Source: Escherichia phage VB-EcoM-WM. From it: 64,000 nt of DNA. The DNA lies in sequence record PQ014731.1; one strand, written 5' to 3'. Under the pieces are notes generated by a model. That model had not been told where the DNA came from, did no database searches, and worked only from the letters and a program-made list of their open reading frames with translations. This document shows, in pieces, positions 34,400 to 38,810 of this stretch. Position numbers and translations under genes: made by a program. How positions within the stretch are numbered: the stretch's first letter is position 1; every line of letters starts with the position of its first letter.

Positions 34400-34446
34400 T
34401 TTATTTTTAGATGGCCTTGACTCCAGGGCCATCAATAAAGTAAACT
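34400..34446. repeat. intergenic hairpin repeat element, copy 1
   Basis: TTTATTTTTAGATGGCCTTGACTCCAGGGCCATCAATAAAGTAAA; 10-bp stem GATGGCCTTG/CAGGGCCATC with ACTC loop. Confidence 0.7.
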
Positions 34447-34599
34447 AGTCTCAACTAAGCGAAAAAGGGGGCTTTAAGATGAGCACTACACGCCAATACA
34501 CAAAGGTAACTATTATCGTTTGCGTTGTCGGTTACATCCTGGCGCAAATGTTAATGAGTAGCGCCAACAGTTTTGCAAAATTTTTCTTAAATTTTTAAT

Positions 34600-34627
34600 T
34601 GACAAGCTAACCTAAATCGGTATACTT
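34600..34627 (+). promoter_or_regulatory. sigma70-like promoter
   Basis: TTGACA-16nt-TATACT. Confidence 0.45.
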
Positions 34628-34677
34628 AAACACGTAAACGGGAAAACTTCCCAAAACACAAAAAAGGAGAAAACACC

Positions 34678-35019
34678 ATGACTACTATGACCGCCGCAGA
34701 AAAAGCTATGCAGATCGCCGCGCTGAAAAAACAGATCGCAGATCTTGAGAACAAGATCGATAACTTTGAAATCGACGAGGACAAGTACGACGAAAACTAT
34801 GATGAATGGTTAGACGAGATCCACGGCGAAATTATGATCGGTAACATTTCTTTTCTTCCGTCGCGTATCCTCAAGGAGTTAGATCCTATCGCTTACCGCT
34901 GCGGATTTAGCGACTACATCGACAGCCTAGATATTGAGGACGATGAGGAATACCAGGAATTGCAGACAGAGCTGGAAGAAGTGAAAGAGGAGCTTTCAGA
35001 GCTGGAAGAAAACGAGTAA
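34678..35019 (+). CDS. hypothetical acidic protein (113 aa)
   Basis: RBS AAGGAGA; E/D-rich C-terminal half. Confidence 0.5.
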   Translation: MTTMTAAEKAMQIAALKKQIADLENKIDNFEIDEDKYDENYDEWLDEIHGEIMIGNISFLPSRILKELDPIAYRCGFSDYIDSLDIEDDEEYQELQTELEEVKEELSELEENE

Positions 35020-35058
35020 AATTTATTTTTAGATGGCCTTGACTCCAGGGCCATCAAT
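35013..35058. repeat. intergenic hairpin repeat element, copy 2
   Basis: Near-identical to copy 1. Confidence 0.7.
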
Positions 35059-35106
35059 AAAGTAAACTTTACACTGTTAACACTGAACTAATGAGGAGTT
35101 AAAACC

Positions 35107-35352
35107 ATGGCAGCACTAATCACAAAATATTATGCGCCCACCAACACCAAAAGCGCCCGTATCATGGTAAAAGGCTTCGGACGTAAAAAGGTCTACACCT
35201 GGGACTATTCCCTAGATATGGAAGACAATTATACCAACGTAATGACTGATTTTATTAATGATCTGAATAAACAGATCTTAACCGACTACAAAGTAACCGA
35301 TATTGCTTACATAGGTGAAGGCGGGATCTGTTTTGTAGGTATTGTGAAATAG
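35107..35352 (+). CDS. hypothetical protein (81 aa)
   Basis: RBS GAGGAG upstream. Confidence 0.5.
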   Translation: MAALITKYYAPTNTKSARIMVKGFGRKKVYTWDYSLDMEDNYTNVMTDFINDLNKQILTDYKVTDIAYIGEGGICFVGIVK

Positions 35353-35398
35353 TTATTTTTTCGGTGGTCCTGGTTGCAGGGCCATCTATAAAGATAAT
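35353..35398. repeat. intergenic hairpin repeat element, copy 3 (diverged)
   Basis: TTATTTTTTCGGTGGTCCTGGTTGCAGGGCCATCTATAAAGATAA. Confidence 0.55.
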
Positions 35399-35428
35399 TT
35401 ATTAACACCATGAAAGGAGAAAGTGCAC

Positions 35429-35782
35429 ATGATTAGCGGGACTAGTTTTATTATTGGCGCTATTGCTACGGCTTTAATTGTAAACAAGATCCAGGATAAA
35501 AAGGAAAGAGGAAGTACCGCCCTTGCAGAATATCCATTTTGGACATTCAACGATAACGAAGATTATATTATAAAGTATAAAAATAAAGAAGGTGACCAAG
35601 TAACACCGCGACCGATACCGGCTTACAAAATGCAGGAAACACTATACCGCTTGGAGGCGGGCGGCGCAAAAATTGTTGACTTTTGGGGATACGATCACAC
35701 AGATCGGGAAGGTATAAAGCGCCGTATCCGGGCTATTCAGGCCAATATTGAAGTTAGCAAGGGGGGAATATATGAAAATTAA
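35429..35782 (+). CDS. hypothetical protein with N-terminal transmembrane segment
   Basis: ATG 35429 after RBS AAAGGAGAAA; MISGTSFIIGAIATALIV. Confidence 0.5.
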   Translation: MISGTSFIIGAIATALIVNKIQDKKERGSTALAEYPFWTFNDNEDYIIKYKNKEGDQVTPRPIPAYKMQETLYRLEAGGAKIVDFWGYDHTDREGIKRRIRAIQANIEVSKGGIYEN

Positions 35783-35969
35783 TTTCGAGAAAATTATAAA
35801 GCGCCCTCATGATTCCGAAGATCTGCCAGAACGCCGACAGCGCAACAATAAACTGAATAAGCCAAAAAGGTTTGGGAAGATCTGGCGGAATCATTATGAT
35901 CGTAAATTGCCCGGCCTACTTTTGGAACGTGAACGACAGGCAGAACGATACCGCCATAAAGACAAATAA
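35772..35969 (+). CDS. small basic hypothetical protein
   Basis: ATG 35772; K/R-rich. Confidence 0.4.
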   Translation: MKINFEKIIKRPHDSEDLPERRQRNNKLNKPKRFGKIWRNHYDRKLPGLLLERERQAERYRHKDK

Positions 35970-35977
35970 CAACCAAC

Positions 35978-36006
35978 GCCCCGCCATTGTGCGGGGCTTT
36001 TTATTT
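35978..36006 (+). terminator. rho-independent terminator
   Basis: GCCCCGC-CATTGT-GCGGGGC then TTTTTATTT. Confidence 0.65.
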
Positions 36007-36127
36007 CTATCCTACGAATAGCGTCCCTGGTTGGCCCTGTAAGCGCCAAAAAGGCCCCCACCTATGCAATCGCCCCCTTTAACCTGAAAACATCGCTCAG
36101 GGCCGTTTTATAGCGTTAAAAATATCA

Positions 36128-37146: not shown

Positions 37147-37239
37147 ATAAAGTGTTGCAATAACCTAAAAACCTGCTATATTAAAACTCAAGGCGGGCGA
37201 GACGTTTGCCCGCCAACACAAAACAAAGAGGATAACATC

Positions 37240-37620
37240 ATGAAAAATACTACCAAGGCTATTGACACCGTTATGTTTAACCTGGTTACATTCCGTGAAG
37301 ATATGAAAGATCTTCCGCGTGAAACAGTGTGCGACCATATCGAAAACTATCGCAAACTAATCAAAGAGTTGCCATTAAAACGAGATCAGTACGCGGCTAA
37401 CGCTATGCTAAACGCCATGATCAAAAAGATGATCCAGTGTGATCTAACCCTGGCCTATGATTATGCAGGCGGTCGCTTTGCAGTATACAATCAGCCCGTG
37501 CCTGGTATGAGCACCACCGAAGAATTGCACGCGCTCAATCTAAAACAGGACGTGTGGGATAGTATGCCTCGCGTGGTGGTATGGGTAGAAAGCGGGAAGA
37601 CTTACGGCGATAATTTTTAA
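37240..37620 (+). CDS. hypothetical protein (126 aa)
   Basis: RBS AGAGGA upstream. Confidence 0.5.
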   Translation: MKNTTKAIDTVMFNLVTFREDMKDLPRETVCDHIENYRKLIKELPLKRDQYAANAMLNAMIKKMIQCDLTLAYDYAGGRFAVYNQPVPGMSTTEELHALNLKQDVWDSMPRVVVWVESGKTYGDNF

Positions 37621-37684
37621 TCAGGTAGCAGGCGGCAAATATGCCGCCCTATTGTTGATCAGAACTGCAAAAGGGGTACATAGA

Positions 37685-38056
37685 ATGGAATTTATTATTT
37701 TGGCCGTATTGGTTGCCTTATTTAACGCCTGGATCGCTGGCAAGATGGGAAGATCCGCCTTTTTATGGTTTATTATATCTATTTTCCTGGGGGTGGTTGC
37801 AACTATTGTATTGGTTATCCTTGCAATTGTTGACAAGGGGAATAATAGAAAGGGTAAAGTATTTTCAGACCTGTACGACGCCCAAACGTTCGTCAACGCC
37901 TATTACAGCGATCTTCCAGTCTCCCTACGTTGCAGCCTTGCACAACAGGTTTTCGATGAGGCTAAAACCAGAGATCACGCCCATGAGATTTGTTTAACTG
38001 AGGCGGATCGTTTATTTGAGAGGAATAGAAAATATGTGGGCCAGCCGTTTAAATAA
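37685..38056 (+). CDS. hypothetical membrane protein
   Basis: ATG 37685 after RBS AAGGGG; two hydrophobic segments. Confidence 0.45.
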   Translation: MEFIILAVLVALFNAWIAGKMGRSAFLWFIISIFLGVVATIVLVILAIVDKGNNRKGKVFSDLYDAQTFVNAYYSDLPVSLRCSLAQQVFDEAKTRDHAHEICLTEADRLFERNRKYVGQPFK

Positions 38057-38275
38057 TACCACGTTAATTAATCCATTTAGTGAAGATTTGAGGCCAGCAG
38101 CCTGGCGGAATGGATTCAATAACGAAAAATTTACTTTTAGGCCTGATCTTGAGGAATTTTATAACAATGGATCGAACAACGACAGAGATAACTTTTCTCG
38201 TAATGTGCGTGGCGATAATACTCCTGGGGGCCATTGTAAACCACGTCACTGCTAACAGGAGGAAAGGGGGAGACG

Positions 38276-38395
38276 ATGACAACCAAGGATAAGCCCAGCA
38301 CCGACAAGGCGCGCCGCGTTATGGTATGGCTTGAGATTATCGCCCTTGAAATATTGTTAGGCGTAGGGATGTATTTTATCGCCGTACGTACCTGA
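38276..38395 (+). CDS. small membrane peptide (39 aa)
   Basis: RBS AGGAGGAAAGGGGGAG; hydrophobic VMVWLEIIALEILLGVGMYFIAV; followed by terminator. Confidence 0.4.
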   Translation: MTTKDKPSTDKARRVMVWLEIIALEILLGVGMYFIAVRT

Positions 38396-38399
38396 TAAC

Positions 38400-38430
38400 G
38401 GCCCCCGATCCCTGGGGGCCTGACTTTTTT
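38400..38430 (+). terminator. rho-independent terminator
   Basis: GGCCCCC-GATCCCT-GGGGGCC then TTTTTT; followed by an A15 tract. Confidence 0.65.
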
Positions 38431-38462
38431 CAAAAAAAAAAAAAAATTTTTCTTCCGGGGTG

Positions 38463-38491
38463 TTGCAATCTGGTCCAGAATATGGATAATA
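38463..38491 (+). promoter_or_regulatory. sigma70-like promoter (paralogous to 39282)
   Basis: TTGCAA-17nt-ATAATA; spacer ...CCAGAATATGG almost identical to the promoter at 39282. Confidence 0.45.
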
Positions 38492-38549
38492 ACAATCAAC
38501 GGGGAGACACTCCCCACCACACAGACAAAGTTCCAAAAGGAGAAACAAA

Positions 38550-38750
38550 ATGAGCAACAATATCCGCGTTATTAACTTCAAAAAAGAAGAAAAAATAGCT
38601 GTGCTGGTTGATGGTCAAGAAATATTCAAAGGGTATTATGAGGATCATCAGGCGGCGATCAGTATTACCCGCGTAATTGGTTACCATAATTTTTACCCTC
38701 AAGGCGCTGAGGCAGCAGTAAAACGAATTAAGGAGATTGTAGGCCTGTAA
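38550..38750 (+). CDS. hypothetical protein (66 aa)
   Basis: RBS AAGGAGA upstream. Confidence 0.5.
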   Translation: MSNNIRVINFKKEEKIAVLVDGQEIFKGYYEDHQAAISITRVIGYHNFYPQGAEAAVKRIKEIVGL

Positions 38751-38762
38751 AATTTATTTTTA

Positions 38763-38810
38763 GATGGCCTTGACCCCAGGGCCATCAAATAAAGTAAATT
38801 TAAAACCTGT
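38763..38810. repeat. intergenic hairpin repeat element, copy 4
   Basis: AATTTATTTTTAGATGGCCTTGACCCCAGGGCCATCAAATAAAGTAAA. Confidence 0.7.

Follow-up and report, generated by a model that had tools for sequence, protein, structure and literature searches.

A recurrent hairpin between early genes of an rV5-like Escherichia phage: candidate RNA processing signal at the junctions of gene cassettes

The DNA considered here is a 64,000-nucleotide (nt) stretch of Escherichia phage VB-EcoM-WM (record PQ014731.1), analysed in its whole length and called the window below. Our subject is a hairpin element that recurs in it four times, within a series of small genes encoded on the + strand. The small genes flanking the copies are of unknown function in PHROGs and have no Pfam match above cut-off. 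Over the region 33500-39500 the window shares 96-97% identity with Escherichia phages SYGMH1, HMD-6 and FV3; with about 120 other Vequintavirus (rV5-like) records the figure is 88-95%. Judged by these identities, the source of the window is an rV5/FV3-like Vequintavirus.

Each copy lies directly after a small gene, and the stop codons of four small + strand open reading frames (ORFs) adjoin the copies (Table 1). This is what an earlier reading, made from the letters alone (the sequence-only reading), had stated when it described an element of roughly 47 nt in four copies, and three counts bear it out. A 24-nt core, GATGGCCTTGACYCCAGGGCCATC, occurs on the + strand at the three positions listed in Table 1 as the upper stem-loops of copies 1, 2 and 4, with 0 occurrences expected from 100 dinucleotide shuffles. 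The repeat finder reports a single family of four 61-nt copies (34386-34446, 35008-35068, 35339-35399 and 38739-38799), the third being a diverged member with 66% identity. Covariance models built from the copies and run with filters off return exactly four matches in the window, and exactly four in the complete FV3 genome, where all lie in the same early region of 4.4 kb. The element has no match among the 4227 Rfam models at gathering score, which were run over the whole window, and none in 5,426 complete E. coli genomes, which rules out a host origin. The rV5 genome paper gives promoters and terminators, and the words repeat, hairpin and palindrome are absent from it. Our literature search returned no paper tying rV5-like phages to such an element.

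As + strand RNA each copy folds into a two-helix hairpin of about 50 nt and about 20 base pairs (bp). The lower stem comprises 9-10 mostly A-U pairs and is followed by an internal loop with 2 nt (UA or UC) opposite 3-4 nt (NAU). Over this loop stands a GC-rich 10-bp upper stem with G·U pairs, closed by a tetraloop. This fold has a free energy of -22 to -26 kcal/mol (z-scores -6.0 to -7.6), and the fold of the minus strand is much weaker, at -8 to -18.5 kcal/mol. The hairpin persists when 120 nt of context are added on each side, with pair probabilities of at least 0.9 in the upper stem and mostly 0.7-1.0 in the lower stem. U17 and A50 of the internal loop could also pair, giving a near-continuous helix of about 21-22 bp; in one variant this position is U·G. 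Individual copies modify this plan slightly. In copy 1 four further pairs extend the hairpin to 34394-34450; the lower stem of copy 3 carries a compensatory A-U/U-A swap relative to copy 1; and copy 4, in this window only, has one extra nt on the 3' side of the internal loop (AAAU). The 10-bp stem with tetraloop recognised in the sequence-only reading is thus the upper stem of a larger hairpin. The T-run and A-run that it placed 5' and 3' of the stem are indeed there, although it missed that the two pair with each other as the lower helix of about 10 bp. Of the TTGAC box that it assigned to the loop, AC lies in the tetraloop and TTG in the stem.

Two other structural roles were considered and rejected. 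A K-turn is ruled out by inspection of the sequence. A stimulator of stop-codon read-through or frameshifting is ruled out as well: the in-frame extension of copy 1 stops after three codons (TAA GTT TAT TTT TAG), and the U-run lies 3' of the stop codon.

The comparison of relatives draws on two lineages. The rV5-like copies come from rV5, EdH4, ECP26, ime, phiWec189, FV3 and IMG/VR contigs. A divergent uncultured lineage was reached by two routes, namely through homologues of the neighbouring protein of 81 amino acids (aa), which are 68-74% identical, and through pattern scans of IMG/VR and metagenomes, with matches on contigs of 130-140 kb. The search of IMG/VR for related loci with the 81-aa protein gave only two loci. 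In the flank-anchored pattern scan the true members are the 33-36-nt matches on the 130-140 kb contigs only, and many 48-nt matches in small unrelated contigs were discarded as false positives; a palindromic pattern scan of IMG/VR gave chance palindromes only. The resulting set of 50 sequences, 49 of them distinct, was aligned with MAFFT. In all 50, whichever the lineage, 0-2 nt separate the base of the helix from the upstream stop codon, and the next gene starts 23-43 nt downstream; in the window, for example, the gene after copy 2 starts at 35107.

Among the 49 distinct sequences standard pairs fill 96.1% of the pair cells; shifting the partners by 1-3 columns lowers this to 34-58%. The same shifts bring the covariation score from 0.272 to 0.071 or less, and none of 500 shuffles reaches 0.272. 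Changes on both sides occur in 4 of the 10 lower-stem pairs and in 2 of the 9 upper-stem pairs. The non-Watson-Crick cells, read on the + strand, are 114 G·U and 19 A·C, and because G·U outnumbers A·C to this extent, the folded form is the sense-strand RNA. Judged by this pattern of substitutions, the object under selection is the folded + strand, i.e. the mRNA. The constraint is comparable with that on first and second codon positions: in seven rV5-like genomes 10-14% of the element columns vary, against 9-18% of first and second codon positions, 41-50% of third positions and 28-65% of the spacers just downstream. It is distributed unevenly along the hairpin. The sequence around the internal loop, UUUU(A/C)G(A/G)UGG...CCAUC-NAU-AAAG, is invariant or nearly so in both lineages, and the 7 bp flanking the loop and the letters U17, A50 and U51 (almost) never vary, whereas the hairpin top and the base of the lower stem are variable or covary.

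We note one further intercistronic hairpin in the divergent lineage, at 1940-1992 of L258 (OGZC01004217.1), which has the same plan with a different core and is unseen by either covariance model. The stop codon is followed there by a lower stem, a loop, a GC-rich upper stem of about 10 bp closed by a tetraloop, and AUGAAUAAGG. The hairpin family may be broader than the covariance models detect.

The copies also mark places where gene content changes. The 622-bp cassette between copies 1 and 2 comprises a 39-aa ORF, a sigma-70 promoter with a 5' stem-loop, a 113-aa ORF and one repeat unit. Exactly these 622 bp are missing from at least four relatives, ECP26, ime, phiWec189 and the IMG/VR contig 2051223002_000007, and the junction in these four is a single hybrid element whose left flank is that of copy 1 and whose right flank is that of copy 2. 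The flanks of ime differ by 0.0-0.4% from EdH4, a carrier of the cassette, and phiWec189 differs by about 1% from two other carriers, rV5 in its left flank and the metagenome contig UADI01 in its right flank. The four cassette-less genomes do not group together; therefore either the event recurred or the allele was moved by recombination. The divergent lineage repeats the pattern: about 590 bp found between two copies of L258 are absent from L245, with a hybrid element at the junction. The sequence-only reading had proposed a comparison of gene content among relatives as a check, and the outcome is thus cassette insertions and deletions bounded exactly by the copies.

Copies 1, 2 and 3 are also points at which the pairwise divergence from the window switches. 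Across copy 1 it rises from 4.0% to 13.9% against rV5 and falls from 12.3% to 4.3% against UADI01; against the latter it returns from 4.7% to 12.8% across copy 2, and against EdH4 it drops from 10.3% to 3.7% across copy 3. The copies offer 50-60 bp of near-identical DNA for homologous recombination. Taken together, these comparisons show that the relatives have repeatedly gained, lost or exchanged gene cassettes by recombination between copies. As a separate observation, at 39155 EdH4, ECP26, ime and phiWec189 carry about 344 bp more, with one small ORF, and the hairpin element is not at this boundary.

The arrangement of signals around the copies suggests how they are transcribed. A typical unit, as inferred from the sequence, consists of a sigma-70 promoter, a 5' stem-loop, a gene, the element, at least one further gene and a canonical terminator. 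The gene that follows copy 3 (from 35429) lacks a promoter of its own before its start codon, as do the genes behind several divergent copies. Their transcription therefore has to pass through the element, which, on this layout, is not a strong terminator.

The early promoters are sigma-70-like, TTGACA-16/17-TAxAxT-TAAAC, and behind each of them the transcript is predicted to begin with a short GC-rich stem-loop. Such modules of promoter and stem-loop lie at 34599-34652 and 36438-36491, two copies of a direct-repeat family with 80% identity, and similar ones near 33921-33976, 37155-37215 and 38463-38520.

Table 1. Positions in the window of the four hairpin copies, their parts and the transcription signals and cassette around them.
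Feature	Positions	Strand	Remarks
Copy 1	34398-34446	+	begins on the last base of the TAA stop of a 134-aa ORF (33994-34398)
Copy 1, lower stem	34398-34407 / 34437-34446	+	
Copy 1, upper stem-loop	34410-34433	+	24-nt core
Copy 1, internal loop	34408-34409 (5' side); 34434-34436 (3' side)	+	UA; AAU
Copy 1, sigma-70-like hexamers	34417-34446	+	TTGACT-18-TAAACT, 9/12 matches
Copy 2	35020-35068	+	begins directly 3' of the TAA stop (35017-35019) of a 113-aa ORF (34678-35019)
Copy 2, lower stem	35020-35029 / 35059-35068	+	
Copy 2, upper stem-loop	35032-35055	+	24-nt core
Copy 2, sigma-70-like hexamers	35039-35068	+	TTGACT-18-TAAACT
Copy 3 (diverged)	35351-35399	+	overlaps the TAG stop (35350-35352) of an 81-aa ORF (35107-35352)
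Copy 3, upper stem-loop	35363-35386	+	two extra G·U pairs, loop GUUG
Copy 4	38751-38800	+	begins directly 3' of the TAA stop (38748-38750) of a 66-aa ORF (38550-38750)
Copy 4, upper stem-loop	38763-38786	+	24-nt core
622-bp cassette between copies 1 and 2	34447-35068		boundaries ambiguous within the repeat
Promoter-like site, operon with copy 1	33921-33948	+	TTGACA-16-TAAACT
Promoter-like site, operon with copies 2 and 3	34599-34626	+	
Promoter-like site, operon with copy 4	38463-38490	+	
Canonical intrinsic terminator, operon with copies 2 and 3	35978-36007	+	GC stem and T-run
Equivalent canonical terminator	38400-38430	+	
Equivalent canonical terminator	39201-39236	+	

We suggest that the element is a cis-acting hairpin in the sense strand of early polycistronic mRNAs, which serves as a processing or stability signal of the type known from phage T7. 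We give this reading about an even chance. To the structure, strand, selection, context and recombination established above it adds cleavage and stabilisation, which we infer. The roughly two helical turns would be the substrate of the host RNase III, with a single cut on the internal loop's 3' side; if T7 R1 is a guide, this cut would come directly after the U of NAU, i.e. between 34436 and 34437, 35058 and 35059, 35389 and 35390, and 38790 and 38791. The upstream cistron would keep a protective 3' hairpin and be uncoupled from the downstream cistron. Hairpins that stay uncut would still block 3'-5' exonucleases. In addition, copies 1, 2 and 4 could fire as weak promoters, and the repeats would also serve as recombination junctions similar to those of the promoter-early stem-loop (PeSL) cassettes of T4-like phages.

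The substrates of E. coli RNase III comprise about two helical turns, and internal loops confine cleavage to one strand, leaving protective 3' hairpins (PMC1540722, PMC3867540). The element offers about two turns of intramolecular double-stranded RNA (10 bp, a 2x3 loop and 10 bp), an asymmetric internal loop about 9-11 bp below the hairpin loop, and a location between cistrons of what its layout suggests to be a polycistronic early transcript. A further trait of T7-type substrates is that their proximal and distal boxes are free of antideterminant base pairs. Folds of the T7 early intergenic regions have a 9-10-bp upper stem with G·U pairs and, separated from it by an asymmetric internal loop, an A/U-rich lower stem adjoining or overlapping the upstream stop codon. 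The centroid fold of T7 R1 consists of a 5+3-bp lower stem, a 5' loop UA, a G·U-bearing upper stem of 9 bp, a tetraloop and a 3' loop AAU. The T7 cleavage coordinates 3138 and 1468, reportedly those of Dunn & Studier (1983), lie at the 3' edge of the predicted loops. An RNA processing site was among the options named in the sequence-only reading; the covariation, the G·U asymmetry and the geometry resembling T7 R1 fit it, while the cleavage itself is drawn by analogy.

Several points weigh against this proposal. Our literature search yielded no transcriptome or transcript-end data for any rV5-like phage, so that cleavage is a prediction. In some divergent members the upper stem has only 8-9 bp. 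The invariant sequence around the internal loop exceeds the degenerate needs of RNase III and could mean another recognition factor. Four copies per genome, all within 4.4 kb, suit cassette-borne spread better than genome-wide processing. The covariance model of the element (R2) has no match in T7 nt 400-8000. We therefore reject homology to the T7 R sites and regard the likeness as an analogy; the proposed function does not call for shared ancestry. Finally, TTGAC is invariant in 26-27 of the 27 distinct sequences of the subfamily formed by copies 1, 2 and 4 and their relatives, whereas the next loop positions, including the sixth position of the hexamer, vary, which hints at selection for a -35 element.

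This last point leads to the alternative that the element is a composite module of PeSL type, in which an early sigma-70 promoter is fused to a stem-loop that attenuates upstream transcription, the whole acting as a portable recombination linker for ORFan cassettes. The AT-rich tract would be UP-like, the -35 box would lie in the hairpin and the -10 box in the 3' arm. The order of stop codon, AT-rich tract, G·T stem-loop, Shine-Dalgarno (SD) sequence and ATG is that of the published PeSL description (PMC2839356). The -10 box TAAACT of copies 1 and 2 is also that of the clear promoter at 33921, TTGACA-17-TAAACT stands in two copies of the divergent lineage (L266:978 and L258:3242), and the recurrent cassette insertions and deletions with hybrid junctions are as such a linker would produce. 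However, copy 3 and most divergent copies (types CCCTGGCGGGG and GTCCGCGATGTGAAAGCGGAT) lack the -35 hexamer and retain hairpin and core. Copies 1 and 2 each match the hexamers at 9 of 12 positions. The spacer is 18 nt in copies 1 and 2 and 19 nt in copy 4, against 16-17 nt in the clear early promoters of this phage, which precede the 5' stem-loop. Covariation alters the supposed -10 letters and keeps the pairing, and strong attenuation would silence the promoterless ORF from 35429 as well as the L258 ORFs after 1088 and 3731. We therefore hold the composite module to be unlikely as an account of the family, though it keeps an appreciable share of our belief. Promoter activity in the subfamily of copies 1, 2 and 4 is plausible from the hexamers and does not define the family. 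Of the T4-type promoter-plus-hairpin module that had been put forward in the sequence-only reading, the recombination stands, on the strength of the hybrid junctions, and the promoter part applies to the subfamily of copies 1, 2 and 4 alone.

It is less probable, and in our view improbable, that the element is an operator for a sequence-specific RNA-binding protein or endonuclease, of phage or host and other than RNase III, which controls translation, decay or processing of early genes. The near-invariance of the pairs and letters around the internal loop, with the other pairs covarying freely, is what such a protein would impose, and the fixed distance of 0-2 nt to the stop codon in both lineages suggests coupling to terminating ribosomes. 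Against this, the flanking genes, all of unknown function, provide no candidate protein, and the T7 RNase III sites share conserved sequence too, so that the conservation needs no new factor.

It is also conceivable, though we attach very little probability to it, that the hairpin is what a dedicated gene-cassette system of rV5-like phages recognises. A phage nuclease or recombination protein would bind the internal-loop core as a folded single-stranded nucleic acid, and the exchange of ORFan cassettes would be aimed at the junctions, in the manner of an integron without a tyrosine integrase, rather than arise by passive homologous recombination. The FV3 annotation contains no integrase. An integron attC site, with RYYYAAC...GTTRRRY core sites, is ruled out, since the arms of the element, GTTTAT...TAAAC, have the opposite arrangement.

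Slightly more doubtful still is a non-canonical factor-independent terminator. The record of phage Murica labels a 45-nt orthologue of copy 4 'terminator', the GC-rich stem of 10 bp would suit one, and a PeSL stem-loop placed between a promoter and lacZ cut expression about as much as the rrnB T1 terminator did (PMC2839356). However, neither the upper stem nor the full hairpin is followed by a U-tract on either strand in any of the four copies, and the terminator scan flags none of them on either strand while it does flag the ordinary terminators used at the operon ends (35978, 38400 and 39201). Together with the read-through needed by the promoterless downstream genes, this agrees with the sequence-only reading, which saw no standard intrinsic terminator on either strand.

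The least credible reading is a double-stranded DNA site, a palindromic operator or cruciform bound by a dimeric protein, for which the inverted repeat with its conserved GATGGCC/GGCCATC core might speak: the unpaired top of the hairpin ranges from 3-5 to 12 nt, so that the distance of the half-sites is not fixed, the dyad is broken by the conserved asymmetric 2x3 loop, the non-Watson-Crick pairs are strand-asymmetric, and the compensatory changes preserve pairing rather than sequence, all of which disfavours the protein-binding site of the sequence-only reading as far as double-stranded DNA is concerned.

Some further features of the window and its relatives deserve mention. Three imperfect copies of a 47-53-nt unit lie at 32328-32513, with a spacing of 65-74 nt, upstream of the early gene run (repeat families D2 and D6). 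A near-perfect long palindrome, GATCATAGTTGCCTTG...CAAGGCAACTATAGATC, with -25 to -29 kcal/mol on both strands, occupies 42202-42292, just beyond the end of the examined + strand early gene run. A terminator-type hairpin with a T-run, GCCCTGCCCGAAAGGGTGGGGC, is duplicated at 15891-15917 and 28500-28526 with 96% identity (repeat family D17), and a homopolymer tract, T6 C A15 T5, stands at 38424-38452, directly 3' of the canonical terminator 38400-38420. Seventeen GenBank records MG0656xx named 'Campylobacter phage', with C. jejuni as host in 15, match this rV5-like region, and the five listed are 92.6-93.6% identical to the E. coli rV5-like region. These records probably have wrong names or hosts, or derive from contaminated preparations.

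Last but not least, phages of the rV5 type are widely isolated for biocontrol and therapy, and there is essentially no work on how their early genes are regulated. The element represents a structured RNA family, supported by covariation, that neither Rfam nor the rV5 genome paper contains. Two ideas become testable with it, namely that large myoviruses punctuate their mRNA by RNase III as T7 does, and that PeSL-style shuffling occurs outside T4-like phages. The copies mark natural junctions at which cassettes were lost or swapped without harm, which makes them candidate sites for payload engineering.

The element can be set beside four known systems. In the sib retroregulator of phage lambda a hairpin lies downstream of a coding region, and its cleavage by RNase III decides what becomes of the upstream message. 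The cut makes the upstream gene's message less stable, and the same hairpin terminates transcription from a second promoter. Both hairpins are 3' of a coding region; neither the destabilisation nor the terminator role of sib is indicated here. The REP/BIME sequences of E. coli are repeated imperfect palindromes that are transcribed in operons and can protect upstream mRNA from 3' exonucleases. The element shares with them the repeated imperfect palindrome transcribed within operons, and it differs by its lack of similarity to the E. coli genomes searched, its low local copy number and its fixed position at the stop codon.

Closer are the PeSL cassettes of the T4-like phages RB49 and phi1 (Arbiol et al. 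2010, PMC2839356; Comeau et al. 2014, PMC4122927). As in these, the repeats are intergenic in a plastic early region rich in ORFans, between the stop codon and the SD/ATG of the next gene, with the same order of elements; the stem-loop is stable and contains G·T pairs; and recombination of neighbouring copies removes or adds the ORFs between them, with a chimeric element left behind. Further traits of PeSL are the termination or attenuation of transcription by the stem-loop and the formation of mini-circles in infected cells. The strong sigma-70 promoter of PeSL, with -35 and -10 boxes and an AT-rich tract, has no equivalent in the family at large, a weak one being found in one subfamily only. 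What the element conserves is the extended two-helix hairpin with its invariant internal-loop core, rather than the -35 and -10 boxes. It belongs to Vequintavirus rather than to T4-like phages and has four copies, where PeSL has dozens. The modules of promoter and 5' stem-loop in this early region are closer than the hairpin element to the PeSL class with the stem-loop downstream of the -10 box.

The early RNase III signals of T7 (R0.3, R0.5, R1, R1.1 and R1.3) are likewise a family of hairpins of about 50-60 nt between early cistrons of a lytic coliphage. They have in common with the element the GC-rich upper stem of 9-10 bp with G·U pairs, the tetraloop, the asymmetric loop, the A/U-rich lower stem and the contact with the upstream stop codon, and in the predicted folds R1 even has the same internal-loop letters, 5' UA and 3' AAU. 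The element differs in that its lower stem is an almost pure duplex of a U-run and an A-run, that its four copies are clustered in 4.4 kb and that they mark the junctions of cassette insertions and deletions, a property not described for the T7 sites. The family is thus undescribed, yet of known kinds: it joins the intercistronic processing hairpins of T7 type with the shuffling junctions of PeSL type.

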